A stretch of DNA of 29,971 nt, from assembly GCA_021781655.1 (NCBI GenBank), contig JAJXWJ010000040.1, positions 1 through 29,971 of the forward strand. The letters are read 5' to 3'. The notes beneath the pieces were generated by a model that saw only the letters and a list, made by a program, of their open reading frames with translations, made no database searches and was not told where the DNA came from. This document shows positions 3,640-29,868 of the stretch, piece after piece. Numbering within the stretch: position 1 is the stretch's first letter; each line of letters begins with the position of its first letter. Made by a program: the position numbers and the translations under genes. The stretch is from Bacillota bacterium. GTDB taxonomy: Bacteria; Bacillota; Clostridia; Clostridiales; Clostridiaceae.

Positions 3640-3881
3640 AAATTCATCCCCTATCAAGTATGGCATATATTATTGATTATAGCATTTTTATGAAATTTTA
3701 TAAATGATAAGTTCATAATAGGTAAAATAAAAGTGTAAGCAACAAACAGATTACAAATTTTTCAAAGTGTATATCTAATATATTAATAATGTGTGAATTT
3801 TAATGTTTTTAAATATAATCAATGATAAAATAGTGGTAAATAATCGAAAATAATGTTTTAAAGAGAGAGGCGAATTTTTTA

Positions 3882-4709
3882 ATGACAATCATTCAAACCA
3901 TAATATTAGCAATAGTACAAGGAATAACCGAGTTGTTTCCAATTAGTAGTGTAGGTCATTCGGTAATAACGCCATATGTTTTTGGCTGGAAGTTAGATCC
4001 ACTATTTTTGAAGGAAAATTTTTTACCCTTTGTAGTTATGATGCATTTAGGAACTTCTATAGCACTTATAGTATATTTTAGGAAGGATTGGGCAGAAGTT
4101 ATTACATCAGTTTTTGGTAGTGGTAAAAACTCAAAAAAAATTGTCATGCTAATAATTATTGGAACACTTCCAGCAGCTATAATTGGATTTGTATTTGAAA
4201 AAAAGTTTTTAGATATATTTAGCAATGTTAGATACGCAGCAATATTTTTAATTATTAATGGTATATTGCTTTATGTGGGTGAAAATTCTACAAGAAGAGG
4301 ACGTAAAAGTATAGAAAATTTAAATTATAGACAAGCAGCAGTAATTGGCTTGTTTCAATCCTTAGCGCTTATACCTGGCTTTTCAAGGTCTGGAGCAAGT
4401 ATGACAGCTGGTTTTTGGATGGGACTTAAACATGAAGCTTCTGCAAAGTTTTCAATGCTTTTAGCTACGCCTATTATAGCTGGTGCTGGTATATTAGAGG
4501 TACCAAAGTTATTTAAGCCTGCAAATAGAGCTATATTAGGTTATTCCATAATAGGTGGTATTGTTGCAGCTATAGTAGCATCAATTAGCATTACGCTAAT
4601 GATGAAATGGTTTCATAAAAAAGAAGTTAATGCAATGAGACCTTTTTCTTATTATTGCGCTGGTTTAGGAGTAGTAGTTTTAGTTTCAAGCTTTTTTATA
4701 GCTCACTAA
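3882..4709 (+). CDS. uppP: Undecaprenyl-diphosphate phosphatase (UppP/BacA)
   Basis: The N-terminus QGITELFPISSVGHS and the multi-TM architecture are typical of UppP. Confidence 0.9.
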   Translation: MTIIQTIILAIVQGITELFPISSVGHSVITPYVFGWKLDPLFLKENFLPFVVMMHLGTSIALIVYFRKDWAEVITSVFGSGKNSKKIVMLIIIGTLPAAIIGFVFEKKFLDIFSNVRYAAIFLIINGILLYVGENSTRRGRKSIENLNYRQAAVIGLFQSLALIPGFSRSGASMTAGFWMGLKHEASAKFSMLLATPIIAGAGILEVPKLFKPANRAILGYSIIGGIVAAIVASISITLMMKWFHKKEVNAMRPFSYYCAGLGVVVLVSSFFIAH

Positions 4710-4741
4710 AAGGTTAAAATTCACAATTATAAGGTGATAAA

Positions 4742-5341
4742 ATGAGAGAAAAAATTGATATAAAGTATTTAAAGATTTACCTTTTTATTTTAATAGTTGT
4801 TATTGTAGGAACAAGTGGCTTAACTTTATATTTTAGTAAATTAAGTGAAGCTAGTAATGAAACCTACAGTTCTAGTCTTACGCTTAATGAGATTAAAGAT
4901 GTTGCTAAGCTAGGTACTGTAGAATATTTAATGGAATCAAGGGTACTTATAGATGATAAAGGAAAAGTTATATTTTCATTAACTATTCCTGGAACAGAAA
5001 AAACTTATATTGCAGTAGCACAAGGACAAGTAACAGCAGGCATAGATTTAAATAAAATAAGTTACTTTAAAGTTAATAATGGTAAGGCAGAAATAAAGCT
5101 ACCTAAATCTGAAATTTTATACAAAAGTGTAGACCCATCTACTAAATGGGAAAAGGAAATGTCTGGCATATTTGCTCATATTACACCCGAGGAAATTACA
5201 AAAGCTGAAGTACAGGCACAAAACGATATGGTAAATAGAGCTATAAAAGAAGGGATTTTAGACAAAGCTGATAGCAATGCTAAAAAACTTATAACAAATT
5301 ATTTAAATGCAGCTGGGGTTAAAGAAGTTGTATTTGAATGA
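4742..5341 (+). CDS. Membrane-anchored protein with an N-terminal TM segment, possibly DUF4230-like
   Basis: It has a single N-terminal TM segment and an RBS. The family assignment is tentative. Confidence 0.5.
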   Translation: MREKIDIKYLKIYLFILIVVIVGTSGLTLYFSKLSEASNETYSSSLTLNEIKDVAKLGTVEYLMESRVLIDDKGKVIFSLTIPGTEKTYIAVAQGQVTAGIDLNKISYFKVNNGKAEIKLPKSEILYKSVDPSTKWEKEMSGIFAHITPEEITKAEVQAQNDMVNRAIKEGILDKADSNAKKLITNYLNAAGVKEVVFE

Positions 5342-5360
5342 TGAGGAAGAATAAAATAAA

Positions 5361-5460
5361 GATGTGACGCAAGTTGCCTCTATAAAAATCCTAAGAAAGT
5401 GCAACGCATTGAGTTTTAATTGACAAATGTCAATTAAAACTCCCTTTGTTTCACTTTTAA
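5361..5460. repeat. Copy A of a MITE-like inverted-repeat element family (collapsed short form with a perfect ttaattgacaaatgtcaattaa palindrome)
   Basis: Bases 5361-5413 are the reverse complement of 16168-16220. The ends gtgcaacgcatt...gtttcac are shared with copies B and C. Confidence 0.8.
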
Positions 5461-5501
5461 TCTTTTTATAGCTTAACAATATGCGTCGAATCTTCTATTT
5501 A

Positions 5502-6245
5502 TCACTGTAAAACAGGAATATTCATTTCTACAGTTGCTTCAGGCAATTTACCTTCCATTCCTAAATAATAATGAGTTATTGGGATTACGTCATCATTTAA
5601 TTCGTATACAAGTGGGGTTCCAGTAGGTATATTTAAGTTTACAATTCCGTTACTTGGGATATTGTCTAAATACCGTACTAGAGCCCTTATTGTATTTCCG
5701 TGAGCACATATTATAACTTTTTTATTTGCTTTTATTGATGGACATATGAATTCCATCCAATATTGTAGAACCCTTTTTTCGGTATCTTCTAAGTTTTCCG
5801 TAAGAGGTATATCATCTTCTATTAAATCATGATATTTATATTCCTTGCCTGCATATCTAGGATCATCTTTTGTTAATGCAGGAGGACGTACATCTACATA
5901 CCTTCTCCATTTATGAACTTGTTCTTCACCGTATTTTTTTATAGTTTCTGATTTATTTAAACCTTGAAGAGCTCCGTAATGACGTTCGTTTAATTTCCAA
6001 CATTTGTTTACTGGAATCCACATTATATCCATTTCATGAAGTATAATATTTAAAGTTCTTATAGCTCTTTTTAGTACAGAAGTATATCCTATATCAAAAG
6101 TGTATCCATTGTTTTTTAAAATTTTACCTGCATCTCTTGCTTCTGTTAGCCCATCAAAGGATAAATCTACATCTGTCCAACCAGTAAATTTATTTTCTTT
6201 ATTCCATTCACTTTCACCGTGTCTTACTAAAACAAGTTTATACAT
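5502..6245 (-). CDS. gpmA: 2,3-bisphosphoglycerate-dependent phosphoglycerate mutase
   Basis: It carries the [12 protein letters not shown] histidine-phosphatase motif. The start is MYKLVL, which has a GAGGTG RBS. The upstream GTG in the ORF track overlaps that RBS. Confidence 0.9.
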
Positions 6246-6395: not shown

Positions 6396-7652
6396 ATGAA
6401 TAAGAAGAGAATTATATTTCATATCGATGTAAACTCGGCATTTTTGTCTTGGACTGCGGCATATAGGCTTCAGCAAGGAGAAATTTTAGATTTACGAACA
6501 ATACCAGCTGTGGTTGGTGGAAATCCTTTAGAGAGACATGGAATAGTTTTAGCAAAATCTATACCAGCAAAAAAATACAAAATAGAAACTGGGGAACCAT
6601 TATTTTCAGCAGTGCAAAAATGTCCAGAGCTTACGATAGTTAAACCTCAATATGATTTATATATAAAATGCAGTAATGCTATGGTTGAGGTTTTAAAGGA
6701 ATATACGCCTAAAGTGCAAAGATTTTCTGTGGATGAGTGTTTTTTAGAGTTCACTGGTATGGAAAATGTATACGGGGATTACATACAATTAGCAAAGGAT
6801 ATAAAGGAAAGGATAAAAAAGGAACTTGGTTTTACTGTGAATATAGGAATATCATCAAATAAACTTCTAGCAAAGGTAGCTTCTGATTTTACAAAGCCAG
6901 ACATGGTTCATACTTTATTCAAGGAAGAAATAAAATATAAAATGTGGCCCCTTCCAGTAGGTGACCTATTTATGGTTGGAAGAAAAACGGTGTCAAAATT
7001 AAATAAGCTTAATATAAGAACGATAGGAGACTTAGCAAACTTTGACCTAAGTGTTTTGAAGGCGGTTCTTAAAAGTCATGGAGTGCTTATATGGAACTAT
7101 GCAAATGGTGTTGAAGATTCAGAAGTTAGGTGTGGTAATTTTATCAACATGAAGGGACTAGGAAATTCTACTACAATATCTTTTGATGTAGAGGATATAA
7201 GAACAGCTCATATGATTTTATTGTCCTTATGTGAAACAGTAGGAATGAGACTTAGAGATTCAGAAAATTTATGTAGTTTGGTTTCTGTGGTAATAAAAAA
7301 TAGCGATTTTTTAATGTATAGAAGACAAAGGAAAATTTACTATGCTACAGATAGCACAAAAGAAATATCAAAAATAGCATGTGAGTTGTTCGATGAAATT
7401 TGGAAAGGGGAAGCTTTACGACTTATTGGAGTGTCTGTTTCTGAGCTTTGCACAAATGAAATGTATCAGATATCGATTTTTGAAGAGGAAAATATAGAAA
7501 AGGAAAGAGCCTTAGATAGCACTATTGATAAAATAAGAAGGAAATATGGCTCAAAAGCTATTTTAAGGGGAAGTTTTTTACATTCCGGAATAAATCCCAT
7601 AAATGGAGGCATTTCTGAAGAAAATTATCCTATTATGAGTAGTATTTTGTAA
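6396..7652 (+). CDS. Y-family translesion DNA polymerase (UmuC/DinB/UvrX-like)
   Basis: ImpB/MucB/SamB-type motifs are present (HIDVNSAFLS, SVDECFLEFTG). It is predicted to be SOS-regulated. Confidence 0.85.
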   Translation: MNKKRIIFHIDVNSAFLSWTAAYRLQQGEILDLRTIPAVVGGNPLERHGIVLAKSIPAKKYKIETGEPLFSAVQKCPELTIVKPQYDLYIKCSNAMVEVLKEYTPKVQRFSVDECFLEFTGMENVYGDYIQLAKDIKERIKKELGFTVNIGISSNKLLAKVASDFTKPDMVHTLFKEEIKYKMWPLPVGDLFMVGRKTVSKLNKLNIRTIGDLANFDLSVLKAVLKSHGVLIWNYANGVEDSEVRCGNFINMKGLGNSTTISFDVEDIRTAHMILLSLCETVGMRLRDSENLCSLVSVVIKNSDFLMYRRQRKIYYATDSTKEISKIACELFDEIWKGEALRLIGVSVSELCTNEMYQISIFEEENIEKERALDSTIDKIRRKYGSKAILRGSFLHSGINPINGGISEENYPIMSSIL

Positions 7653-7664
7653 GGGGTGTATGAA

Positions 7665-7928
7665 ATGAAAATTGTGGCAAAGTCTATAGAAATGGTGGCA
7701 TGGTTTTCAAAGGACGGAATTCCTCATCCTGTTAGATTTAGAATATCTAACGAAGATGAGACTGTTTCAGTTATTAAAGTTGATAAGGTAATATTTAGAG
7801 AAAAGGAAAAAATAGCAGGAAATAATATGCTTGTGTTTAGATGCCAAAGTAGAATATATGGCGAGGAAAAAATTTATGAAATAAAATATGATATTATAAC
7901 TTGTAAATGGATATTATTTAAAATATAA
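7665..7928 (+). CDS. Small hypothetical protein that appears to be co-transcribed with the Y-family polymerase
   Basis: It starts 13 nt after the polymerase stop and has an AAGGGG RBS 8 nt before the ATG at 7665. The ORF-track start at 7656 is a GTG inside that RBS. Confidence 0.5.
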   Translation: MKIVAKSIEMVAWFSKDGIPHPVRFRISNEDETVSVIKVDKVIFREKEKIAGNNMLVFRCQSRIYGEEKIYEIKYDIITCKWILFKI

Positions 7929-7929
7929 A

Positions 7930-7961
7930 GGCTTCTAAAAATAAATTTATTTTTAGAAGCC
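7930..7961. terminator. Bidirectional terminator formed by a perfect 32-bp palindrome (ggcttctaaaaataaa|tttatttttagaagcc)
   Basis: It lies between the convergent polymerase operon and the crp-like gene. Confidence 0.6.
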
Positions 7962-8636
7962 CATAATAATGCTTTCTAATCTTTCTACATCTAATATTTT
8001 AAAACTATTTTTGTGAAAGTCTACAATGCCTTCATTTTGCATATTAATGAGTTCTCTTGAAAGTGAAGGCCTTAAAACTCCAAGTTCTTCTGCCATTTCT
8101 TTTCTTGAAGCATTGATAGTAAAGGTAAGGTTTTTATTTATCTTATAATTATCTAAAAGAAAGCTTGCAATTTTTTGCCTTAAAGTATCATAGGAAAGAT
8201 TTGTTAGCTTTTTGTTTAACATCAATATTTTGTTGGATAATAGCCCCATAAAGTTATTTAAAAGCGTGGCATTGTTTGAACAAAGAGTTATTATATTTTG
8301 CTTTGAAATAAAAAGTATAGATACATTTGAGGCTGCGACAATAGTTGAAGGATATTTGCTCATTTTAGAAAATACTATTACTTCTCCAAATATATTTCCT
8401 TCTGAAAGCTTTGCAAGAGTAACGTTTTTACCAGAGGCAAAAATTTTTTTTATCTCTACTTCTCCAGCTATAACTATACCCAGACTATTACAATTATCAC
8501 CTTCAATAGCTATATATTGATCTTTTGAAAAGTCACAAATTGTAAGTTCGATTTTACTTAATATTTCTTCAATAGAATTATCATTAAAGCCTTTAAAAAT
8601 AATACAATTTTTAAGTATAGGTATTATGTCTCTCAT
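7953..8636 (-). CDS. Crp/Fnr family transcriptional regulator (cNMP-binding domain plus C-terminal HTH)
   Basis: The C-terminal HTH RKEMAEELGVLRPSLSRELINMQNEGIV is typical of Crp/Fnr. Confidence 0.8.
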   Translation of the reverse strand: MRDIIPILKNCIIFKGFNDNSIEEILSKIELTICDFSKDQYIAIEGDNCNSLGIVIAGEVEIKKIFASGKNVTLAKLSEGNIFGEVIVFSKMSKYPSTIVAASNVSILFISKQNIITLCSNNATLLNNFMGLLSNKILMLNKKLTNLSYDTLRQKIASFLLDNYKINKNLTFTINASRKEMAEELGVLRPSLSRELINMQNEGIVDFHKNSFKILDVERLESIIMGF

Positions 8637-8817
8637 ACATATCTCCTTTTTTAAAACTTAACGTAATGATTTTATTATATGTTACTACAATTAGTATATA
8701 AACACAATATAAGATGAAAAAGTGGGATAGTAGGTATATATCTAGATGCTTATGAAGTATACAAAAATAATAAAAGCTGTTATATTAAAAATAGTAAAAC
8801 AACAATGGAGGTAAATA

Positions 8818-9759
8818 ATGGATAGGATTATAAAATTAAAACCGGTATTTCAAGAAAGAATATGGGGAGGTACAAATTTAAATAGTTATTTTGGATATGA
8901 GTTGCCTTCAGAAAACACAGGAGAATGTTGGGCGATTTCTGCTCATAAAAATGGGGATTGTGAAATAGTGAATACTGAATATAAGGGTAAAACCTTATCT
9001 TGGTTATATAAAAATCATCGTGAACTATTTGGAAACATATCAAATGATGAATTTCCACTATTAGTAAAGTTAATAGATGCTAAAGATAATTTATCTATTC
9101 AAGTGCATCCTGATGACAACTATGCAAAAGATATAGAGGGAGAGGCTTTTGGAAAAACGGAAGCTTGGTATATAGTAGATTGTAATGAAGATACCTTATT
9201 AGAAATAGGACATAATGGAGAAACAAAAGAACAAGTTAAAAAGATGATAGAAGATGGAAAATGGGACGAACTACTGAATTATATTCCAATTAAAAAAGGA
9301 GACTTTTTCTTTATACCTTCAGGAACAGTTCATGCAATTTGTAAAAACACTTTGATATATGAGATACAGCAGTCATCAGATATAACTTATCGTTTATATG
9401 ATTACAACAGAGTAGATAGTAAAACAGGAAAAGAAAGAGAGCTGCATACAAAAAAATCTATAGATGTAATAAAGGTGCCACAAAAAATAGATGAGACAAT
9501 TAAGCCTAAGATGGAGGTCATAAACAATTCAAAAGTAACTATATATGCTGATACTGAGTATTTTAAAACAATTAAATACGATATAGATGGAAGCTTTGAA
9601 ATTATGAATAAAGCACCATTTATGCTTTGTACTATATTAGATGGTGAGGCTACAATTAATGAAGAAAAGTTTTTAAAAGGAGATAATTTTATTGTACCAA
9701 CACAACTAAAAGAAATAAAAATTTTCGGAAAAATAACAATAATAGTGTCTACACTGTAA
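8818..9759 (+). CDS. manA: Mannose-6-phosphate isomerase, class I (Bacillus-type)
   Basis: The protein is about 313 aa with QVHPDD, EAWYIV and cupin motifs. A GGAGG RBS precedes it. Confidence 0.85.
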   Translation: MDRIIKLKPVFQERIWGGTNLNSYFGYELPSENTGECWAISAHKNGDCEIVNTEYKGKTLSWLYKNHRELFGNISNDEFPLLVKLIDAKDNLSIQVHPDDNYAKDIEGEAFGKTEAWYIVDCNEDTLLEIGHNGETKEQVKKMIEDGKWDELLNYIPIKKGDFFFIPSGTVHAICKNTLIYEIQQSSDITYRLYDYNRVDSKTGKERELHTKKSIDVIKVPQKIDETIKPKMEVINNSKVTIYADTEYFKTIKYDIDGSFEIMNKAPFMLCTILDGEATINEEKFLKGDNFIVPTQLKEIKIFGKITIIVSTL

Positions 9760-9784
9760 CCATATTGTATTAATAAAAAACTAT

Positions 9785-9830
9785 AGCACAACCATTTGCA
9801 AAAGTATATACTTTTGCAAATGGTTGTGCT
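9785..9830. repeat. Perfect 46-bp palindrome (agcacaaccatttgcaaaagtat|atacttttgcaaatggttgtgct). It could be a terminator or attenuator after manA, or an operator.
   Basis: It is a perfect inverted repeat with no loop and only a weak U-tract after it. Confidence 0.6.
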
Positions 9831-9868
9831 ATTATGTTGCTAATAAATAAGAGTAGAGGAGTATGATT

Positions 9869-13697: not shown

Positions 13698-15893
13698 ATG
13701 GCGATAAAATATAACGAAAAATCAAGAACTTTCAAATTAGATGCCAAAGATACAAGCTATATTATAGCAATTGTAGATGAAGAGCAATTTATAGGACATG
13801 TTTATTTTGGTGAAAAGCTTCCAGATGAAAATGTAAATTATTTAATGCGACTAGAAGAGGCACCTTTTGTACCGTCTAAAAATAATAGAAATAGATTGCC
13901 GTTTTTAGATTCATTTCCTACAGAATATTCTACTAGTGGCTTAGGTGATTTTAGAGAGCCTTGTCTTAAGGTTACCACTTTGTCAGGTGCAGCAGTCTCA
14001 GGAATATCATATTTATCCCATAAAATCTACAGCGGTAAACCTAAATTAAAAGGTATGCCAGCCACTTTTGGAGAAGAAGACGAATGCACAACTTTAGAAA
14101 TTACTTGTGTAGATAAGCACTTAAATTTGGAAGTTATTTTAGTTTATTCTGTTTTTGAAAATTTGGATGTTATTACAAGAAGTGTGAAAGTTAAAAACAA
14201 TTGCGAAGAAAGTATTATGTTAAACAGAGTTTTATCTTGTTGTGTAGATTTTGATAGGATAGATTTTGATGTTGTTACTCTTCATGGTGCTTGGTCTAGA
14301 GAAAGGCACATAAACAGAAGAACAGTGACTTTAGGAAAACAAGGCTGCTCTTCCTTTAGAGGAGAATCGAGTCATCAAGATAATCCATTTATAGCTGTAA
14401 TGGATAAAACAGCTACAGAGGACAGTGGTAGGGTTTATGGTTTTAACTTTGTGTACTCAGGCAACTTTATAGCACAGGCTGAGGGCTGCCAATTTGATAC
14501 TACCCGTGTAGTAATGGGAATCCATCCTATGGATTTTAGCTGGAAGCTTGAAAATGGTGAAGAATTTACGGCACCAGAAGTAGTAATGGTTTATTCTAAT
14601 GAGGGAATTGGAAAGATGTCAAGAACCCTTCATGATCTATACAGAAATAACCTTATCCGTGGAGAATACAAGGATAAAAAACGTCCAATACTAATTAATA
14701 ACTGGGAAGCTACCTACTTCGATTTCAATACTGATAAATTAATTAGTATTGCAAAGGAAGCCTCAAAGCTTGGAATAGAAATGCTTGTTATGGATGATGG
14801 ATGGTTTGGTAATAGAAGCAGTGATAATTGTTCCCTTGGTGATTGGGTAGTGAACGAAGAAAAGCTTAAGGGTGGGCTAAAATATTTAGTAGATGAAGTT
14901 AATAAGTTAAATATGAAATTTGGAATATGGTTTGAGCCAGAAATGATTTCTCCTGATTCGAAGCTATATAGAGTTCATCCAGATTGGTGCATACATATCG
15001 AAGGAAGAGTTGGAACCCTTTGCAGAAATCAGTATGTATTAGATATAACAAGAGAAGAAGTTAGAGAATATATATATCAAAGTATGAAAAAAGTTTTATT
15101 AAGTGCCAATATCGAATATATTAAGTGGGATATGAATCGTCAGCTAAGCGACTTAGGCAGCAGTGCTCTTCCTTATGATAGGCAGGGAGAATTGTCTCAT
15201 AGATATGTACTTGCAGTATATGACCTTATGGAAAGATTAACGTCAGAGTTTCCACATATTCTTCTTGAAAACTGTTCTGGTGGAGGAGCTAGATTTGATG
15301 CTGGTATGCTTTATTACAGTCCTCAAATTTGGGCTTCAGACGATACTGATGCCATAGAAAGATTAAAGATTCAGCATGGTACGTCTTTGGTATATCCTTC
15401 TTCTGCCATAGGTGCACATGTAAGTGATTGTCCAAATCATACTGTTGGAAGAATAACACCGTTTGAAACTAGAGGACATGTAGCTCTTGCTGGAACCTTT
15501 GGTTATGAATTAGATGTTACCAAAATTTCCAAGGAAGATCGTGATATGATACCAAAACAAGTTAGAATGTATCATAAATATAATGACTTAATTAGAACTG
15601 GTGACTTATACCGTATAAATAGCCTTTTTGAAAATTCAGAGTATAACTGTATAGGTTATGTTTCAAAGGATAAAGCGGAAGCTCTTTTCATATATGTTCA
15701 AGTTTTGGCTAGACCCAATTATCATAGTAGAAGGGTATGTTTAAAAGGATTAGATAAAAATACATACTATCGTAATGAAGAGACTGGAGAAGTTTATTCC
15801 GGTGCAGCTCTTATGAATGGTGGGATTTTAATAAAGGATTTATGGGGAGATTTTAAGAGTAAACTTGTTCATTTTGTTAGAGAAGGGGAATAG
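13698..15893 (+). CDS. Alpha-galactosidase, glycoside hydrolase family 36
   Basis: GH36 motifs are present (LVMDDGWFG, KWDMN, N-terminal MAIKYNEK...). The protein is about 731 aa. Confidence 0.85.
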   Translation: MAIKYNEKSRTFKLDAKDTSYIIAIVDEEQFIGHVYFGEKLPDENVNYLMRLEEAPFVPSKNNRNRLPFLDSFPTEYSTSGLGDFREPCLKVTTLSGAAVSGISYLSHKIYSGKPKLKGMPATFGEEDECTTLEITCVDKHLNLEVILVYSVFENLDVITRSVKVKNNCEESIMLNRVLSCCVDFDRIDFDVVTLHGAWSRERHINRRTVTLGKQGCSSFRGESSHQDNPFIAVMDKTATEDSGRVYGFNFVYSGNFIAQAEGCQFDTTRVVMGIHPMDFSWKLENGEEFTAPEVVMVYSNEGIGKMSRTLHDLYRNNLIRGEYKDKKRPILINNWEATYFDFNTDKLISIAKEASKLGIEMLVMDDGWFGNRSSDNCSLGDWVVNEEKLKGGLKYLVDEVNKLNMKFGIWFEPEMISPDSKLYRVHPDWCIHIEGRVGTLCRNQYVLDITREEVREYIYQSMKKVLLSANIEYIKWDMNRQLSDLGSSALPYDRQGELSHRYVLAVYDLMERLTSEFPHILLENCSGGGARFDAGMLYYSPQIWASDDTDAIERLKIQHGTSLVYPSSAIGAHVSDCPNHTVGRITPFETRGHVALAGTFGYELDVTKISKEDRDMIPKQVRMYHKYNDLIRTGDLYRINSLFENSEYNCIGYVSKDKAEALFIYVQVLARPNYHSRRVCLKGLDKNTYYRNEETGEVYSGAALMNGGILIKDLWGDFKSKLVHFVREGE

Positions 15894-15932
15894 AAACATA
15901 ATGCGAACTAAGTTGAAACTATAAAATGTGTA

Positions 15933-16220
15933 AAAGCAAATCGCAGGTCGTTTTAATTGACAGTTGACAGTTGACAATGGACAATGATGGTTGATTTTCC
16001 TATGCTAAGCTACGGAAAATCTGTAATTTATTTAAATTGGCTAAAGCCAATGGAAACTGATGGTTTTGCTATGCAAAACCTAAAAATAATAATTTGTAGT
16101 TTTTCTGACTGAAAGGAAGAAAAACATCCTTCATTGTCAACTGTCAATTGTCCATTGTCAATTAAAACTCAATGCGTTGCACTTTCTTAGGATTTTTAAA
16201 GAGGCAACTTGCGTCGCATC
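15933..16220. repeat. Copy B (full-length, ~290 bp) of the MITE-like element. It has ~40-bp terminal inverted repeats carrying TTGACA arrays and three internal hairpins.
   Basis: The left end ttaattgacagttgacagttgacaatggacaatgatgg is the inverse of the right end ccttcattgtcaactgtcaattgtccattgtcaattaa. The right flank is the reverse complement of copy A's left part. Confidence 0.85.
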
Positions 16221-16233
16221 TTTATTAAAATTC

Positions 16234-17174: not shown

Positions 17175-18437
17175 GTGGGTGTATACAAATTTGCATTAAG
17201 GATGATGAATATATTTGCCAGTGAATGTATTTTTTATTTTATCTCGATAATAATATCCATAGCTTTAATTTTTAATTGTCTAAATGTTGTTACAATGAGC
17301 AATTTTATAGGTATGAATGAAACTCAAAATCGAATATTAACTGGAATTCCTTTCTTTTTAGCGTTGATAATTTGCTTGTTTACCTTTTATGCTAATTCTT
17401 ATTTTGTAATAAATAAAACTAAGGAAATGGCTATAGAAGCACTTTGTGGTGTTTCAGAGAGAAAGCTATCTAATTACTTACTGCTTCAAAACTTAATTAT
17501 TGAACTTTCAGGTTTTGTAATTGGTTTAGTCATCGGTATTATGATTCAGCCTATAACGTTAACCTTAGTATACAAAAGTCTTAATAGTAATGGGAATATA
17601 TGGTCGTTGAACATGACTAGCATAGGTGGCACCGTTGCAATTTTAATTATTCAATTATTGTATGTGACTGCAGGTGACTATGCGTTTATTTCTACAAAAG
17701 AGATTAAAGACTTAATGGTATTAGAAAAAGAAATTTATGCTCCAGATAATAGAACAATACGGTTTCCAGGCTTTATGTATGTAATAATTTATTTTATGCC
17801 TGTTGTAATATTATTTAAAGTTTCAGGAAAGACCACAGATTTATTATCCGTTTATGTAATATGTTCACTCATAAGTATAAATGGAATATTGCAGTTTTAT
17901 ATTCCTAAAAAAATAGCTAATATAAAAGAAAAAAGATTTTCTGATAATAAAATAATGATGATATCTTTAAGCAACCTACAGTATTCCTTCAAAAAACTAA
18001 ATTTTCTTATGCTTATGATATCTTCAATAATAGCTTTTGTGCTTGGTCTTTTAGGTTCATTTGCAGACAATCAATATATTAAAATTATGAGTGTAATTGC
18101 TTATTTTAGTATAGTAATTTTAATATCTATAAGCTTAATATATAAGCTTCGTATTGAAGTTCAAAAAAGAAAAGATTCCTTTAGAAATCTCTTACTCATT
18201 GGATATACAAAAGCAGAGGTTAAAAAGATTATTTTAGTAGAAGTATTAATATTTTATGTAATCGCTATAACAATTCCATTAGGCCATATTTTGTTTTATA
18301 TATACACATTTTTATTAGGTGGTATAATTTCTATTTCAGTAGCAATAGCACTTCCTGCTACATATGCTTTAATGTTTACTGCAACAGGGTTAATAGCATA
18401 TCAATCTTATAAAAATATGATAATAAAAGATAAATAA
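17175..18437 (+). CDS. ABC transporter permease, FtsX-like family (copy 1)
   Basis: It is a multi-TM protein with a C-terminal FtsX-like segment (LLIGYTKAEVKKIIL...). It is a paralog of 20844-22094 and uses a GTG start (MGVYKF). Confidence 0.7.
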   Translation: MGVYKFALRMMNIFASECIFYFISIIISIALIFNCLNVVTMSNFIGMNETQNRILTGIPFFLALIICLFTFYANSYFVINKTKEMAIEALCGVSERKLSNYLLLQNLIIELSGFVIGLVIGIMIQPITLTLVYKSLNSNGNIWSLNMTSIGGTVAILIIQLLYVTAGDYAFISTKEIKDLMVLEKEIYAPDNRTIRFPGFMYVIIYFMPVVILFKVSGKTTDLLSVYVICSLISINGILQFYIPKKIANIKEKRFSDNKIMMISLSNLQYSFKKLNFLMLMISSIIAFVLGLLGSFADNQYIKIMSVIAYFSIVILISISLIYKLRIEVQKRKDSFRNLLLIGYTKAEVKKIILVEVLIFYVIAITIPLGHILFYIYTFLLGGIISISVAIALPATYALMFTATGLIAYQSYKNMIIKDK

Positions 18438-18455
18438 TTATAAAGGGGTGCAAAA

Positions 18456-19859
18456 ATGGAAGTATATAAATTAACATTAAAAACAATTAGTATATTTATC
18501 ATAAAATGCATTTTAAATTTTGCATTAATAATAGTATCAACAGCTTTAATTTTCAATTGTTTAAATGTTATTATAATAAAGAATATAATAGGTAGTAATG
18601 GAATTGGAAATCAGACGCATGTAGTAATTCTTTTTTTATTATTGTTAATAATATGTTTAATTTCTTTTTATTGTAATGCTTATTTTTTAGTGAGGAAGAC
18701 AGATAAGCTAGTAAAATCTAAACTTATTAATGCTTCGGAAAAGAAACTATTTGATTACTTATTGATTAAAAATTTTATTATTGAAATTACAGGTTTTGCA
18801 ATTGGTTTTGTTATTGGAATTAAAATGCAGCCAATAATTTTAAATTTTGTGTACAGAATTATTGGTACTAATGGAGATATAAGTAGTTTGAATAATGTTA
18901 GTGTAAGTACATCAATTGCAGTTCTAATTATTCAATTGTATTGCACGATTGTTTATGAGAAAGGGATTATATTAATAAATAAGGCTAAACCTTTAATAAA
19001 AGACAATGTAGTTTATACAAAAAATGTAACAAAAATATATAAACAAATAATTAGAACAAAAAAGTTTGATCCACTTTCTGCTTTTGCTGGCTTGGGAATA
19101 AGTGTTGGAAATAAGGAAATAAAAATTAAAGATAAGAAAAAGAGTGTGCAATTTAAAGCTTTAGATAAGGTTAGCCTCTCTATAAAGAGTGGAGAATTTG
19201 TTTGTATAATGGGACCATCAGGCTCTGGAAAATCAACCTTTTTAAATATATTATCTACAATAGATATGCCTAATGTTGGTATTGTTAAAGTTAATGGTGA
19301 AGATGTTCCTGTTATGCCTCAGAAAAAATTAAGCAGATTTAGATATGAAAATATAGGCTATGTATTTCAAGATTTTAATTTGTTAGAACAATTAACAATA
19401 AGAGAAAATATAAGTGTTCCACTTAAATTAGCGGATATACCTATTAACATAATAGATGAAAAGGTAGTTGAACTAGCAGAGAAGTTAAATATAACTAATA
19501 TTTTAGATAAATTTCCTTATGATTGCTCAGGTGGAGAGAAGCAAAGAGCAGCCTGTGCAAGAGCACTTGTTACAGAACCAAGAATTATAGTAGCAGATGA
19601 ACCAACAGGAAATTTGGATACAAAAAATTCTCATGAGATTTTAAGTATTTTAAGAGAAAGAAATGAAAAGGATGGAATATCTATACTTATGGTTACCCAT
19701 GACGCGCTGCTTGCAAGTTATTCAAAAAAACTCATATTTCTAAGGGATGGTAAAATTGATGAGGTTGTAGAAAGAGGACAATTATCGCAAAAAGAATTTT
19801 ATTATAAAATTGTAGATATCACTTCAAAAGAATCGCAAAGTCTTTTTGATGCTATGTAA
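18456..19859 (+). CDS. Fusion protein with an N-terminal 4-TM fragment homologous to the FtsX-like permease N-terminus joined to a MacB/FtsE-type ABC ATPase domain
   Basis: The N-terminal ~180 aa align to the permeases' first ~180 aa. The remainder has Walker A GPSGSGKST, signature CSGGEKQRAA and Walker B IVADEPTGNLD. The two parts are in one continuous frame. Confidence 0.7.
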   Translation: MEVYKLTLKTISIFIIKCILNFALIIVSTALIFNCLNVIIIKNIIGSNGIGNQTHVVILFLLLLIICLISFYCNAYFLVRKTDKLVKSKLINASEKKLFDYLLIKNFIIEITGFAIGFVIGIKMQPIILNFVYRIIGTNGDISSLNNVSVSTSIAVLIIQLYCTIVYEKGIILINKAKPLIKDNVVYTKNVTKIYKQIIRTKKFDPLSAFAGLGISVGNKEIKIKDKKKSVQFKALDKVSLSIKSGEFVCIMGPSGSGKSTFLNILSTIDMPNVGIVKVNGEDVPVMPQKKLSRFRYENIGYVFQDFNLLEQLTIRENISVPLKLADIPINIIDEKVVELAEKLNITNILDKFPYDCSGGEKQRAACARALVTEPRIIVADEPTGNLDTKNSHEILSILRERNEKDGISILMVTHDALLASYSKKLIFLRDGKIDEVVERGQLSQKEFYYKIVDITSKESQSLFDAM

Positions 19860-19869
19860 TGCAAAACAG

Positions 19870-19900
19870 AAGGCTTAGGTAAACAATTTACCTAAGCCTT
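19870..19900 (+). terminator. Strong hairpin (aaggcttaggtaaa-caa-tttacctaagcctt) separating the two transporter units
   Basis: It has a 14-bp perfect stem but only a weak T-tract. Confidence 0.5.
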
Positions 19901-19909
19901 TAACATATG

Positions 19910-19938
19910 TTGCATTAGAAAAATTATAGATTTATAAT
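19910..19938 (+). promoter_or_regulatory. Near-consensus sigma-A promoter TTGCAT-17-TATAAT for the second transporter unit
   Basis: It reads ttgcat tagaaaaattatagatt tataat, about 40 nt upstream of the TTG start and RBS. Confidence 0.6.
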
Positions 19939-19977
19939 AATGTTATTGTTTACATATACTTTAAAGGGGATGTCAAG

Positions 19978-20829
19978 TTGAAAAAAATAATAGATGCAAA
20001 AAATATTATAAAAACTTACGATATAGCTGTCAGAGGAAGTAAATTCAAAAATAGCATTAAATATTCTTCTGCAGATAATGGTATGCTTAATATTGAAGTT
20101 GTTAAAGGAGAAACAAGTAAATTTAAAGCTTTAGACAAAGTAAGTTTGTCTATTATGGAGGGGGAATTTACATGTGTAATGGGTCCATCAGGATCTGGTA
20201 AGTCCACATTAATAAGTATTTTATCCACAATAGACAGTCCAACCATCGGTAAAATTAAAGTTAATGGAGAAAATGTTATAGAGATGTCAGAAAGAAAATT
20301 AAGCCGATTCAGATATGAAAATATTGGTTATATTTTTCAGGAGTTTAACCTTTTGGATAATATAACCATTAGAGATAATATAGCACTTCCTCTTTTGCTT
20401 AAAAATGTAAATAAAAAAGAAATATATAAAAGAGTAGAAGCTTTAGCGGAAAAGCTTGATATAGTAGGTACTTTGGATAAGCTTCCCTCAGAGTGCTCTG
20501 GAGGACAAAAGCAAAGGGCAGCCTCAGCTAGGGCACTTATTTCTGAGCCTAAAATAATTATTGCAGATGAGCCAACAGGAAATTTAGATTCAAAAAATTC
20601 CCATGAACTTTTGAAAATATTAAAGGAACGAAATGAAAAACAAGGTACATCTGTATTAATGGTTACTCATGATGCAATGATAGCTAGCTACTCAAAAAAA
20701 CTTGTATTCATACGAGATGGAAAAATAGAAACAGAGCTTATAAGAGGAGATTTATCACAAAAGGAATTTTTTTATAAAATAGTCGATATCACTTCAAAAG
20801 AATCTCAAAATTTATTCAATGAAATATAG
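19978..20829 (+). CDS. ABC transporter ATP-binding protein (MacB/LolD/FtsE-like, copy 2)
   Basis: It has Walker A GPSGSGKST, signature CSGGQKQRAA and Walker B IIADEPTGNLD. It uses a TTG start with an AAGGGGA RBS. Confidence 0.85.
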   Translation: MKKIIDAKNIIKTYDIAVRGSKFKNSIKYSSADNGMLNIEVVKGETSKFKALDKVSLSIMEGEFTCVMGPSGSGKSTLISILSTIDSPTIGKIKVNGENVIEMSERKLSRFRYENIGYIFQEFNLLDNITIRDNIALPLLLKNVNKKEIYKRVEALAEKLDIVGTLDKLPSECSGGQKQRAASARALISEPKIIIADEPTGNLDSKNSHELLKILKERNEKQGTSVLMVTHDAMIASYSKKLVFIRDGKIETELIRGDLSQKEFFYKIVDITSKESQNLFNEI

Positions 20830-20843
20830 ATAAGGAGTTAACA

Positions 20844-22094
20844 ATGGGGGTATTAAAATTTTCTATAAAAATGTTAAATTTAGTTGCTAAAGAAAGTATT
20901 TTTTATTTTGTATCAATAATTATTTCAATGGCAATAATATATAATAGTTTAAATATTGTTGTAAGCGATAACATCTTGGGAGCAAGAGGTATAGACAATC
21001 AAGTAATAACTAATATACCATTTTTTTTAGCTCTACTGATATGTGTTTTCACATTTTATGCTAATTCATATTTTGTAATAAATAAAACTAAAGAATTAGC
21101 TATAGCAGCACTTTGTGGTATTTCAAGCGGCGAATTGACTGGCTATTTTTTGGTGCAAAATTTTGTTATTGAAATACTTGGAGGTTTTTTTGGAATAATA
21201 CTAGGAATTCTAATTCAACCTATATATATAGAAATTTTGTACAAATATTTAAGCATAAATGGCAGCGTCTGGCTTATAAATAAGGAGACTATATTTGGAG
21301 CTTTAGGTATTTTGCTTTTACAGCTGTTATATATTACAGCTGGAGATTTTGCTTATATTTCTTCCAAAGAAATCAAGTTTCTAATGACTTTAGAAAAACA
21401 GGTTTATACGCCAGATACAAGAAAAATAAAAGTTAATAACAAGCTATATTTAATTGTATACTGCATTCCTTTTGTGACGGTATTTTTAGGCGTTAATATT
21501 ATTCCATTAGATATGGCATGTTCTATTTACAGCATATATGGGATAGTGAGGTATTATATTCCTAATAAGCTTCTAGATATTAAAGAAAAAAAGTATAGTG
21601 GAAATAAAATATATTTAGTTTCATTAAGTAATTTATACTATTCTTTAAAAAGGCTAACTTTTCTGATTTTAATATTATCATCAGTTATACCTGTAGTTTT
21701 AGGACTGTTAATGATAAATAAAGGAAGCTCAGTTATAAAAATTATGAGCATATTCACATATTGCAGTATTATAGTTTTAATTGCTGTTTGCATGGTGTAT
21801 AAGCTGTTGATAGAAGCTAACAATAGGATGTCTTCATTTAAAAATCTTCTGCTTATAGGATATACAAAAGCTGAGGTTAAAAAGGTAATATTTTCGGAAA
21901 TTATTTTGTTTTATTGTATAGCAGCTATTATGCCGCTCCTTCATGTGCTAGTGTATGTATTTATTTTTAAAGCTGCTAATTACATTACAATATCAATTGG
22001 ATTGGGTTTAATATTATCCTTTGTTTTAATGTTTGGAATAACAGAGTTAATTTCATATAGAGCATATAAAAATTGTGTATTTTCCACCATATAA
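20844..22094 (+). CDS. ABC transporter permease, FtsX-like family (copy 2)
   Basis: It is a paralog of 17175-18437 (MGVLKF... and conserved FYANSYFVINKTKE). An AAGGAG RBS precedes it. Confidence 0.7.
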   Translation: MGVLKFSIKMLNLVAKESIFYFVSIIISMAIIYNSLNIVVSDNILGARGIDNQVITNIPFFLALLICVFTFYANSYFVINKTKELAIAALCGISSGELTGYFLVQNFVIEILGGFFGIILGILIQPIYIEILYKYLSINGSVWLINKETIFGALGILLLQLLYITAGDFAYISSKEIKFLMTLEKQVYTPDTRKIKVNNKLYLIVYCIPFVTVFLGVNIIPLDMACSIYSIYGIVRYYIPNKLLDIKEKKYSGNKIYLVSLSNLYYSLKRLTFLILILSSVIPVVLGLLMINKGSSVIKIMSIFTYCSIIVLIAVCMVYKLLIEANNRMSSFKNLLLIGYTKAEVKKVIFSEIILFYCIAAIMPLLHVLVYVFIFKAANYITISIGLGLILSFVLMFGITELISYRAYKNCVFSTI

Positions 22095-28929: not shown

Positions 28930-29217
28930 ATGAGTAAAAGAAGAGAAAGTAGTTGCTGCTGTGTAAATAATCAGATTCCAAGTGGAATGCCACTTAATAG
29001 AAGCTGCTGCTGCAGCTTACCAACACTAATTATTTTAATATTAATAATATTACAATTTGGAAGAAGAAGAGGTTCAAGTTATGAAGGAACAGATGAAGGT
29101 AGTAGTGGAGGAAGATTAATTGATAATAGCTTATTGTTCATAATAGCTTTATTCTATCTATCCTGCTGTAATTCTTGTAATAGAGGTTCAGGCATGGGCA
29201 TGGGTATGGGCTTTTAA
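28930..29217 (+). CDS. Cys-rich small double-TM protein (module 3a)
   Basis: It reads SSCCCVNNQ...SCCCSLPTLIILILIILQFGRRRG ... LSCCNSCNRGSGMGMGMGF. A GAGGAGGG RBS precedes it. Confidence 0.6.
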   Translation: MSKRRESSCCCVNNQIPSGMPLNRSCCCSLPTLIILILIILQFGRRRGSSYEGTDEGSSGGRLIDNSLLFIIALFYLSCCNSCNRGSGMGMGMGF

Positions 29218-29235
29218 AAAAATATAGTACAATAG

Positions 29236-29418
29236 AAAAAAATTACGCACTAACTCTTAAGCTTAAATTGTTAAAAAGTGAAACGCATTATATATTAATT
29301 GACATTTGACAATGGACAATTGACAATGATTGTGGATTTTTCTACGCTACTCTACGAAAAATCTTTAAACAATTTAATTGCCTAAAGGCAATTAAAACTT
29401 CCTACGTTTCACTTTATA
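29236..29418. repeat. Copy C (~180 bp) of the MITE-like element, inserted between modules 3a and 3b
   Basis: Its ends gtgaaacgcatt...cgtttcac match the family. It carries a TTGACA array and hairpins gatttttc-N13-gaaaaatc and ttaattgcc-taaa-ggcaattaa homologous to copy B. Confidence 0.85.
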
Positions 29419-29487
29419 ACTATTTTTAAAAGTAACTTAGTTCGTAATATTATTTTATTGTACCGAAAAAATATTGAGGTGTTTATT

Positions 29488-29736
29488 ATGTCTGGCAGCA
29501 AAAAGAGAGATTCTAAAGTGGAAAATGGAAAAACATCTAAAAATGAAGTGAATGTAAAACCAAATAAGCTCAATGTTAATGAAGCTATGGATATGTTAAA
29601 GAATGTAGATAGTAATCAAATACAGCAAATGTTAAACAATATAGATGTTAATGAAATTCAAAATGCTTTGAAAAATATAGATTTAAAACAGTTATCCATG
29701 CTTGTAAATATAATAAATTTGCTAAGTAGAAAATAA
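29488..29736 (+). CDS. Small hydrophilic protein with 12-residue N[VI]DxNQIQxxLxN repeats (module 3b)
   Basis: Repeats are MLKNVDSNQIQQ, MLNNIDVNEIQN and ALKNIDLKQLSM. A GAGGTG RBS lies 6 nt before the ATG at 29488. The ORF-track TTG at 29458 has no RBS. Confidence 0.5.
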   Translation: MSGSKKRDSKVENGKTSKNEVNVKPNKLNVNEAMDMLKNVDSNQIQQMLNNIDVNEIQNALKNIDLKQLSMLVNIINLLSRK

Positions 29737-29868
29737 TTAATAATTTTAGTTAAAAGCACAAATTAAAGAAATAAGAATATTATATAGTAGGTGTCTAGTA
29801 AATAGATATCGAGACAAAAGATGCAAAATGATACATCATGTAGGCTATAAAAAAGGGGGAAAGAACAA

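Follow-up and report, generated by a model that had tools for sequence, protein, structure and literature searches.

A contig from an uncultured Clostridium-like bacterium carries, between several of its genes, a repeated sequence with arrays of TTGACA, and the question raised by this locus is whether such repeats are mobile DNA, carriers of a promoter or genes for a small structured RNA. A first-pass annotation had placed three copies at 5361-5460, 15933-16220 and 29236-29418, and had read paired changes between their hairpins as a sign of selection on a structured RNA or a cruciform-forming DNA. Here, we delimited the copies in the window (the whole stretch of 29,971 nt that was analysed, a complete contig of a metagenome-assembled genome) and compared their parts with other DNA.

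Results

Three copies of a composite inverted repeat

Related non-coding repeats are found three times in the window, as element A at 5350-5501 (152 nt), element B at 15889-16232 (344 nt) and element C at 29230-29460 (231 nt). The existence of three related intergenic copies was borne out by a 27-nt arm pattern, which matched 5 of the 6 arms with two mismatches or fewer, against 0.02 matches expected by chance in the window. The limits given earlier were too narrow though, since the arms run about 70 nt past the TTGACA arrays; in the same way, the terminal inverted repeats of about 40 bp with TTGACA units exist as inverted repeats and as arrays, but the arms are longer than proposed, with pairing over 67 nt in B. 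The parts of the elements are as follows, with strand given for arms and arrays:

5350-5501, element A: arms only, meeting at a central palindrome; fills the gap between convergent DUF4230 and histidine-phosphatase genes
5350-5419, + strand, A left arm: 'GACGCAAGTTG' subtype; 94% identical to the B right arm over 81 nt
5411-5442, A central palindrome: gagttttaa-TTGACAA-a-TGTCAA-ttaaaactc; one heptad remnant per side
5434-5501, - strand, A right arm: more diverged; its end adjoins the stop codon of the minus-strand phosphatase gene
15889-16232, element B: full-length copy between convergent alpha-galactosidase and GntR genes
15889-15956, + strand, B left arm: 'GCGAACTAAGTTG' subtype, C-arm-like; its first bases include the alpha-galactosidase TAG stop (15891-15893)
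15957-15984, + strand, B left heptad array: TTGACAG TTGACAG TTGACAA TGGACAA; TTAA before, TG after
15993-16021, B hairpin H3: gattttcc-N13-ggaaaatc; one compensatory pair relative to C
16036-16051, B hairpin H2: attggc-taaa-gccaat; one compensatory pair relative to C and D
16062-16080, B hairpin H1: ggttttgc-tat-gcaaaacc
16099-16125, B hairpin H0: gtttttct-N11-agaaaaac; absent from the earlier annotation
16134-16161, - strand, B right heptad array: minus-strand TTGACAA TGGACAA TTGACAG TTGACAA, then TTAA on the + strand
16162-16232, - strand, B right arm: 2 nt separate its end from the minus-strand GntR stop codon
29230-29460, element C: left arm, left array, H3, H2 and right arm, without right array, H1 and H0
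29299-29326, + strand, C heptad array: TTGACAT TTGACAA TGGACAA TTGACAA
29335-29363, C hairpin H3: gatttttc-N13-gaaaaatc
29373-29396, C hairpin H2: tttaattgcc-taaa-ggcaattaaa

Two inverted arms of about 70 nt are present in every copy, and alignment of all six arms revealed conserved blocks common to them. The arms belong to two sequence subtypes, one seen in the left arm of A and the other in the left arm of B and the arms of C. Between different loci arm identity reaches 94-96%, and the left region of C is 96% identical over 167 nt to a copy in another contig (L051). Identity of this order over 81-167 nt at unrelated loci makes convergence impossible. Within one element the two arms are complementary over 32 nt at 84% in B (extendable to 67 nt at 76%), over 49 nt at 76% in C and, in A, over 30 nt at 83% (BLAST gives 72% over 152 nt). 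B and C also contain T(T/G)GACAN heptad arrays and short perfect hairpins, four in B and two in C, and every array in the window, three in all, is made up of exactly four heptads. At the site in C where a right array would be expected, the spacer end AAAGGCA joins the inner arm end (ATTAAAAC) directly.

All three elements lie in intergenic DNA: the genes around A and B converge, those around C are in tandem, and stop codons adjoin the element ends in all copies. Only short ORFs, not conserved between copies, were found in them; a small peptide was considered for a 42-aa ORF in B and rejected, since C has no conserved counterpart of it. The window contains no tRNA gene. These results support A, B and C as a family of miniature non-coding inverted-repeat elements.

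Hairpins and covariation

Each element folds strongly as a whole: A as a single long imperfect hairpin (z = -10), B as a long hairpin that encloses four smaller ones (z = -9) and C as a long hairpin (z = -7). The inner 145 nt of B fold into H0-H3 on either strand, with z = -4.5 and -5.5. The three hairpins previously named in B are real, and H0 (16099-16125) was found in addition to them. Perfect 8-bp hairpins of the form G-N-TTTT-N-N number five in the window against 0.1 expected, four of the five lying inside elements. Hairpin content varies between copies, as A has none of H0-H3, C has only H3 and H2, and B has all four.

The two compensatory differences between B and C are exactly as first described. 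They represent 2 of 14 stem pairs, and with three sequences available 101 of 500 shuffles reach an equal score, so the covariation is not beyond chance. A copy from another contig holds a one-step mismatch intermediate, and copy D has two single-sided changes that lead to wobble pairs, on opposite strands. Searches with Rfam 15 gave no match in the window at the gathering score and only chance-level matches at relaxed thresholds (E >= 0.28), and the H1 and H3 sequences are absent from IMG/VR. The step from covariation to a structured RNA was therefore not sustained: with non-significant covariation, no Rfam family, equal folding of both strands and variable hairpin content, a dedicated structured-RNA gene is unlikely.

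Promoter-like, terminator-like and regulator sites

As to the suggestion that TTGACA and TAyGCT could form promoters, consensus-like sites do exist. Each of the three arrays has TTGACA-17-GACAAT (10/12), B has TGGACA-17-TATGCT (9/12) as well, and the region has 7 promoter-like sites against 3.0 +/- 1.6 expected, but no position-specific bias of the kind that promoter selection would leave was observed across 231 related arrays among the matches listed, and the promoter idea is weak. Intrinsic terminator-like sites were predicted once in A (+ strand, the central palindrome), once in C (- strand, hairpin H2) and not in B. Sites for cre, CodY, Spo0A, Rex and IHF were compared by eye and dropped, as none matched. 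By resemblance only, the DnaA box begins with the 7 nt of the unit TTATCCA, and TTAAAGGCA corresponds to the P2 Cox box.

Mobility and distribution of the arms

The proposal of a mobile miniature element agrees with a non-coding inverted-repeat family whose arms are 94-96% identical and occur with extra flanks, but consistent target-site duplications, empty sites and a cognate transposase were not found. At least three additional flank contexts were observed in other assemblies of the same species: in L051 the GntR side of B is joined to a PTS-EIIA gene, and in L082 and L084 the C site is joined to other flanks, L084 also containing an arms-only variant of the element. These extra flanks could be mis-joins across repeats in short-read metagenome assemblies. 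Contigs of such assemblies end inside an element in 5 of 6 cases for GntR, in both cases for alpha-galactosidase and in one for DUF4230, and in this genome the elements account for the assembly breaks and re-joins at these points. Independent assemblies in ENA, NCBI and Logan, made from different samples, contain the same elements with the same flanks.

Every assembly in which an exact-protein look-up located the flanking genes also carries the element, including A and C, so that no empty site was seen; two of the look-ups returned no record. Reading of the flanks showed TA on both sides in C only and no match in A, B, D or E. No arm match adjoins a transposase in the sequence fetched, no arm-like ends lie near the DUF772 transposase of L051, and there is no Y1 transposase in the window.

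Judging by the collections searched, the arms appear restricted to this species. Only chance matches to the arm sequence were obtained in 185,579 GTDB species genomes, and only chance matches to the arm pattern in JGI metagenomes and IMG/VR. Two related Clostridium genomes, whose alpha-galactosidase is 81% identical, have neither arms nor synteny. When element B was compared by BLAST with plasmid and phage collections, the sole match was a 34-nt heptad stretch. Literature on MITEs and Clostridium repeats held nothing specific to these elements.

The heptad array in other DNA

The inner part of the element proved to have a different distribution. The module consists of TTAA, four heptads, a spacer, four inverted heptads and TTAA, with the unit T(T/G)GA(C/T)A(A/G), or T(T/G)GAYAR; for comparison it was defined as T(T/C)AA, 3-5 units, T(G/T), a spacer, an inverted array and TTAA. 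B fits with both arrays, TTAA outside and TG inside, and C with one array and the spacer end AAAGGCA. The central palindrome of A reads as a collapsed version of the module. The wide spread of TTGACA arrays beyond this genome is absent from the first-pass annotation.

The TTAA-plus-array pattern matched 7 viral stretches and a more general three-heptad pattern matched at least 120 viral contig stretches, of 30-69% GC. About 24 of the viral stretches belong to low-GC phages that are related to one another and have just one unpaired array of three units, and these may be an unrelated coincidence. Among the matches listed there are 231 distinct arrays, four units being the commonest size and the architecture being that of the B left array, and paired arrays are convergent in 40 cases and outward in 0. 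The arrays have conserved boundaries, T(T/C)AA on the outside and T(G/T) on the inside, and the spacer ends are conserved across phyla. Identically bounded arrays of 28 nt are present in DNA from at least three phyla, at 30-69% GC. An Annamia dubia plasmid carries a canonical array pair; plasmids of Nostoc and Bacteroides uniformis gave weaker matches, and the B. uniformis copy inspected was degenerate. In cultured collections the module is rare, with 3 matches among 72,556 plasmids and 2 among 50,697 phage records. More may be hidden by the low-complexity filter of BLAST, which is also the probable reason why a query made of heptads alone gave no match. Text searches of the literature with heptad strings returned unrelated primer matches or nothing.

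At variable heptad positions one arm matched the other at 0.662 against 0.646 when permuted, a value reached by 291 of 2000 permutations. Since the match is no better than permuted, sequence and not pairing appears to matter. Units are homogenised within an arm in some copies, as in L128, where TTGACAA x4 stands opposite TGGACAA x4, and in some foreign spacers a T run comes after a GC hairpin.

The density of arrays can differ sharply between related phages. L172, a Porphyromonas-type phage fragment, has more than 20 arrays in 10 kb, scattered between unrelated genes, while its relative Porphyromonas phage005b (terminase 78% identical) has 0, and between the two the terL-portal gap goes from 18 nt to 1.86 kb in L172, where array elements bracket accessory ORFs. 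Many arrays in one phage lineage and none in a close relative suggest a mobile or recombinogenic module smaller than the usual transposable elements. For a partner protein, about 1 Mb of viral DNA with arrays was examined, and all-against-all clustering of its 2,011 ORFs returned lineage-specific phage genes only; no transposase or other candidate partner recurs near the arrays. A TnpB beside one L172 array was rejected as partner because it does not recur elsewhere. Array pairs 3.5 kb apart in L116 enclose ordinary capsid genes and no transposase.

Discussion

With a probability of roughly 0.6, our results indicate that A-C are species-restricted, MITE-like composite palindromic repeats built around a cross-phylum invasive heptad-array palindrome. 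Such an element would have three layers. The outermost would be the two inverted arms of about 70 nt, confined to the species and of two subtypes; inside them would lie the TTAA-flanked heptad module, a member of a phylogenetically scattered class of invasive palindromes; and the spacer would hold up to four short perfect hairpins with a common G-N-TTTT stem, specific to the lineage. B would then be complete, C would have lost one array and two hairpins, and A would have collapsed to its arms with one heptad remnant per side. Mobility and a trans-acting protein are what we infer from these patterns. The elements would have spread or been exchanged as DNA and would survive only at harmless sites directly behind stop codons. 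The heptads would most likely act by their sequence, as repeated putative binding sites for a trans-acting protein of the transposase or recombinase kind, action through stem pairing not being apparent, and the small hairpins may be kept palindromic through selection or hairpin-templated repair. As a side effect, a very stable hairpin would close any transcript that reads through from either neighbour, and this hairpin could lead to attenuation or protect the 3' end; the elements mark 3' gene ends where long hairpins may influence read-through and mRNA stability.

Selfish repeat DNA fits better than a dedicated RNA gene. According to the latter explanation, a small structured RNA with covarying hairpins would be transcribed inward from a sigma-70 promoter supplied by the TTGACA array and would be spread by the inverted repeats. 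This agrees with the promoter-like pairs in the three arrays and in B, with the good folding of the inner region of B and with the two compensatory pairs, and four heptads, the commonest array size among the matches listed, would together with the next T provide the exact length for a -35 and a -10 at 17-bp spacing. We nonetheless regard it as unlikely: covariation is matched by 101 of 500 shuffles, the strands fold equally well and the wobbles of copy D fall on opposite strands, B has no predicted intrinsic terminator, no Rfam family matches, A is missing all the hairpins and C two of them, and the hairpin sequences are absent from IMG/VR. Across the 231 arrays listed, moreover, TTGACA is not enriched at unit 1 nor GATAAT at unit 4, and the same arrays are present in Bacteroidota phage, and Bacteroidota promoters differ. 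It is equally doubtful that the arrays are operator- or centromere-like sites, bound cooperatively by a small DNA-binding protein, that regulate or organise neighbouring DNA and are not mobile. A period of 7 bp, a fixed number of units in direct runs placed head-to-head, arms that are not kept complementary (as expected where sequence matters and not pairing) and the precedent of established heptad operators all speak for such sites, but the arrays of the window lie at the 3' ends of convergent genes and not at promoters, up to 20 copies per 10 kb stand between unrelated genes in L172, no small DNA-binding gene recurs beside the arrays, and the heptad is unlike the omega site WATCACW.

The position of every copy just past stop codons, two of them between convergent genes, could also be explained if the elements were bidirectional terminators or 3'-UTR stabilisers that evolved locally and are alike through shared constraint. 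Strong folding of the whole elements on either strand, terminator-like scores for the centre of A and for H2 of C, and GC hairpins with T runs in some foreign spacers are in line with this. The identity of 94-96% between unrelated loci is not convergence, however; B lacks a predicted terminator, the stems are AT-rich and have no T tails, and other phyla carry the same module in DNA of very different GC, all of which makes local origin improbable. The intergenic DNA of bacteria is enriched in heptameric repeats, which in some cases form inverted pairs (PMC4692102), and units homogenised within an arm, as in L128, would be expected of plain heptameric microsatellites that, like the heptamers of Nostoc or Xanthomonas, arose by replication slippage and came to lie by chance in an ordinary palindrome. 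This is very improbable in view of the tight array length (four units in 3 of 3 arrays in the window and as the mode of the 231 listed), the 40 convergent and 0 outward pairs among the matches listed, the TTAA and TG boundaries and spacer ends conserved across phyla, and the same heptad in genomes of 30-69% GC. We give almost no credence to an assembly artefact, in which the repeats would be chimeric joins in a metagenome-assembled contig. The window is a complete contig of this kind, and assemblies of the species break and re-join at these repeats, but the same sequences of element plus flank come independently from three sources of assemblies and different samples, and heptad modules exist in finished plasmids of cultured strains.

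Beyond the composite repeats of this species, the heptad module could tentatively be taken as a class of invasive DNA elements that is new to description, spans several phyla and combines very small size with a dedicated trans-acting protein, although we hold this at less than even odds. Such a module would settle between genes and at the borders of cassettes, in phage and plasmid DNA as well as in chromosomes, across Bacillota, Bacteroidota, Cyanobacteriota and high-GC hosts, with outer arms and inner hairpins acquired per lineage. A protein that reads the heptads could reveal a new system of mobilisation or recombination and could explain the shuffling of accessory genes between phages.

Comparison with known systems

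Bacterial MITEs are non-autonomous derivatives of insertion sequences. A-C share with them a length of 150-345 nt (below about 600 bp), the absence of coding capacity, inverted-repeat ends, apparently dispersed copies of high identity in intergenic DNA, and breaks in short-read contigs at these sites. They differ in having no consistent target-site duplication, no parent insertion sequence with matching ends in the sequence and collections searched and a modular inner part, and in that the arms within one element are about 76% complementary while those of different elements are 94-96% identical. Correia elements, known only from Neisseria, are co-transcribed as a hairpin and are marked by inverted repeats of 26 nt, a TA duplication and an IHF site. 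Both are palindromic repeats near genes (Correia of about 100-150 nt) with promoter-like hexamers near the ends and with full and internally deleted forms, but the 26-nt repeats, TA duplication and IHF site of Correia were not seen in A-C, and the heptad arrays have no known Correia counterpart.

The pneumococcal BOX element consists of two different end modules around a variable number of hairpin-forming boxB units. It is likewise modular, non-coding and intergenic with a stable RNA structure; we know of no sequence relation between it and A-C, and BOX is not known to have heptad arrays and repeats one boxB where B has four different inner hairpins. REP, BIME and REPIN sequences measure 20-40 nt, reach hundreds of copies, are associated with a RAYT gene flanked by REPs and typically maintain their stems by compensatory changes. 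Short hairpin palindromes, inverted pairing and location after genes are common to both, but A-C are larger and composite (arms of about 70 nt plus cores), apparently of low copy number and without a Y1 transposase in the window, and are not assigned to this group. Cyanobacterial STRR and the GGGAATC repeats of Xanthomonas are tandem 7-nt intergenic units, sometimes in inverted stem-loop pairs, whose arrays vary widely in length and are each found in one genus (PMC4692102). In contrast, T(T/G)GAYAR arrays have about four units, form convergent pairs with conserved boundaries and cross phyla among the matches listed. With their fixed copy number and convergent pairing they do not behave as STRR-like heptameric simple repeats.

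The omega repressor of pSM19035 binds contiguous 7-bp WATCACW heptads, direct and inverted, at three promoters of this plasmid. Both systems have adjoining units of 7 bp in the two orientations, apparently read by sequence and not by pairing, but in our case the heptad differs, the arrays are at gene 3' ends and no ribbon-helix-helix or other small repressor gene was found linked to them, which sets them apart from operators of the omega type. PeSL cassettes, known from T4-type phages only, are conserved sequences between genes that combine a true early promoter with a stem-loop; they flank accessory ORFs and probably serve modular exchange. The array elements of L172, whose own role as promoters or in recombination is putative, likewise bracket accessory ORFs.

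Three palindromic elements

The first-pass annotation had described three copies of one intergenic element, and reading of the sequence confirmed all three as real; the interpretation given to them there was supported in part only.

A, 5350-5501, fills the gap between convergent genes
B, 15889-16232, full-length copy, fills the gap between convergent genes
C, 29230-29460, lies between tandem genes

The elements abut stop codons at their ends, and B takes in the TAG that closes the alpha-galactosidase gene. Alignment of the six ends defined arms of ~70 nt with conserved blocks in the order AATA(G/A)AA, GATGCGACGCAAGTTG or ATTACGMACTAA, AAAGTGMAACGCATTGAG and then TTTTAATTGACA, and a 27-nt arm pattern matched five arms at 2 or fewer mismatches, against 0.02 expected. 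A-left shares 94% identity with B-right across 81 nt, but the two arms within one element are only ~76% complementary. Arrays of exactly four heptads, T(T/G)GACAN units, are present as two inverted copies in B and as one in C. Whichever strand is folded, the 145 nt between the B arrays form four perfect hairpins (z = -4.5 and -5.5), three of them with a common G-N-TTTT stem; the window has 5 hairpins with this stem, against 0.1 expected, and 4 of the 5 are inside elements. Hairpin content ranges from none in A and two in C to four in B, and each whole element folds into a long imperfect hairpin (z = -7 to -10).

Copies elsewhere in the species

In other samples, contigs coding for the identical GntR protein break off within B, 176 nt or ~38 nt beyond the gene. 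Alpha-galactosidase contigs, too, stop inside B. One contig with this GntR protein, L051, spans an entire element, the far half of which has 96% identity to C-left, and beyond it carries a PTS-EIIA gene in place of the alpha-galactosidase gene. Other flanks were found in two assemblies past the 95-aa ORF adjoining C, and an arms-only variant lies downstream of this ORF in contig L084. On contig L082 (676-5367), the C element is followed not by the window's downstream genes but by hydrolase, DUF2397, DUF2398 and SbcC-like genes, a domain set that resembles a Wadjet-type defence operon; right at the C junction a hairpin, cttttgc-aaa-gcaaaac, resembles H1, one of the small hairpins of B. The species assemblies show at least three additional flank contexts, which may instead be repeat-mediated mis-joins, although such mis-joins would themselves need extra near-identical copies. 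No further copies were found in ~20 kb of extra flanking DNA, and every assembly with the flanking genes carried A and C. Scans of 185,579 species genomes, JGI metagenomes and IMG/VR with the arm pattern yielded isolated matches only, evidently random ones, and the two relatives searched showed neither arms nor conserved synteny.

Host and gene setting

The window has a GC content of ~30% and ordinary Clostridium-type chromosomal genes, including sugar hydrolases, a ROK kinase, a GntR regulator, ABC/FtsX transporters, a chemotaxis receptor and DinB. The host is a Clostridium-like species, uncultured and rather isolated, since the next best relatives of its alpha-galactosidase, in Clostridium sp. 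19966, C. thermarum and Clostridiales oral taxon 876, are only 81% identical. Two FtsX-like permease and two ABC ATPase genes (17175-22094) look like diverged paralogous pairs, with 65-80% DNA identity over long stretches. At the head of the run of sugar-utilisation genes, a perfect palindrome of 25+25 nt, lacking a spacer (9783-9832), precedes the SASA-esterase gene by 30 nt and could be an operator or terminator. Just downstream of a minus-strand DUF4342 gene, a 94-nt unit is repeated in 3.2 tandem copies (123-424; 96-98% identical, GC above the surroundings), and this repeat also breaks assemblies, because all assemblies of the locus begin at about this position; an end motif resembling it (aaacatgggcac..ccc) adjoins the arms-only element of L084 (~3640-3680). 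The small ORFs on either side of C (28930-29217 and 29458-29736) have no Pfam match, the upstream one ending in a Gly-Met repeat, and a short Cys-rich ORF (MSCCADTVNYGG...) starts near 29868 and is truncated by the end of the contig.

The heptad module in other genomes

The arrays extend beyond this genome, in patchy abundance, as a module of TTAA, four heptads, spacer, four inverted heptads and TTAA. In IMG/VR, a query made of the array and the inner end of the arm (TTAATTGACANTTGACANTKGAYAA) matched 7 stretches, where well under one match is expected by chance, and a general three-heptad pattern matched at least 120. Among the matches listed there were at least 231 distinct arrays (at least 83 of 3 units, 117 of 4 and 22 of 5) in loci of 30 to 69% GC, with at least 40 convergent pairs 2-94 nt apart and no outward pairs. 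The arrays have conserved edges, T(T/C)AA on the outer and T(G/T) on the inner side, and the spacer end AAAGGCA is found in many foreign modules and in C. The module is rare in cultured collections. The cyanobacterium Annamia dubia has a canonical array pair on one plasmid, a Nostoc plasmid gave a BLAST match, and the copy on a plasmid from Bacteroides uniformis is degenerate; there were also matches in two uncultured faecal phages. About 24 viral stretches are related low-GC phages with a single unpaired three-unit array each, which may be unrelated to the module. In the viral locus L099 (2680-2780) a different heptamer microsatellite, (AATTCAT/AATTCAG)n of ~14 units, adjoins the heptad array, so several kinds of 7-nt repeat coexist in that genome.

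L172 is a 10-kb Porphyromonas-type phage fragment; its terminase and the one in Porphyromonas gingivalis phage005b are 78% identical. More than 20 arrays are present in L172 against none in the complete phage005b genome, which points to an invasive module. Where phage005b has a terL-portal gap of 18 nt, that of L172 measures 1.86 kb and contains two accessory ORFs, both of them flanked on either side by array elements; an IS605-type TnpB gene and an ADP-ribosylglycohydrolase gene are likewise bracketed. The accessory ORFs and the TnpB gene fall within 4204-6062 and 7497-9620. The L172 copies, which occur in both orientations, have a further short end in common (CTTATTTAA ... TTAAATAAG). Outer ends that differ from lineage to lineage, as the Clostridial arms also do, thus seem to be the general pattern.

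Structured RNA, promoter or protein-binding arrays

Covariation had been taken to imply a structured RNA or cruciform. In an alignment of only three sequences (B, C and the copy on L051), both sides had changed in 2 of the 14 stem pairs, as claimed, but 101 of 500 shuffles did as well, and the L051 copy has a single-step mismatch at one of the two compensatory pairs. A rough estimate makes it improbable that chance alone placed all four altered stem bases in two compensating pairs, so the palindromy of the hairpins is probably maintained, a result that fits RNA and DNA hairpins equally. With no Rfam family match, covariation at shuffle level and variable hairpin content, the structured-RNA claim was not supported, and a dedicated RNA gene explains the elements poorly. 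Promoter-like sites exist, in that every array contains TTGACA-17-GACAAT. Such sites are not strongly above background (7 observed, 3.0 ± 1.6 expected), and the related arrays (at least 231, among the matches listed) showed no position-specific sequence preference. Terminator-like sites are present in A and C and none were found in B. The elements may affect transcripts.

At variable heptad positions the two arms of a pair match at 66.2%, against 64.6% after unit permutation (291 of 2000 permutations reach the observed value; 41 distinct pairs), and some pairs set TTGACAA x4 opposite TGGACAA x4. The arrays are thus not kept complementary, which speaks against selection for a perfect stem and for heptad sequence recognition, or slippage within each arm. 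The heptads may serve as protein-binding sites. No recurrent neighbouring protein was found beside the arrays.

Comparison with known repeats

The best-supported reading is that A, B and C form a composite, MITE-like repeat family: the copies are repeated, non-coding, palindromic in folding and of recent common origin. A heptad-array palindrome found across phyla would have acquired, in this species, ~70-nt arms and a set of small hairpins, with A and C as probable deletion derivatives of the full form. That the module itself is an invasive cross-phylum element is the more novel reading, and moderately probable. The suggestion of a mobile miniature element stands as regards a repeated, non-coding palindromic family, which may be mobile, but a classical MITE has a target duplication and these elements show no consistent one. 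In behaviour they are like MITE, Correia or BOX-type repeats, yet they belong to no named family; the comparison covered Correia, BOX, REP/RAYT, PeSL and omega operators. Text search of the freely accessible literature found no description of the heptad strings, and ordinary heptamer microsatellites (PMC4692102) differ from the fixed-length, paired heptad arrays found here.
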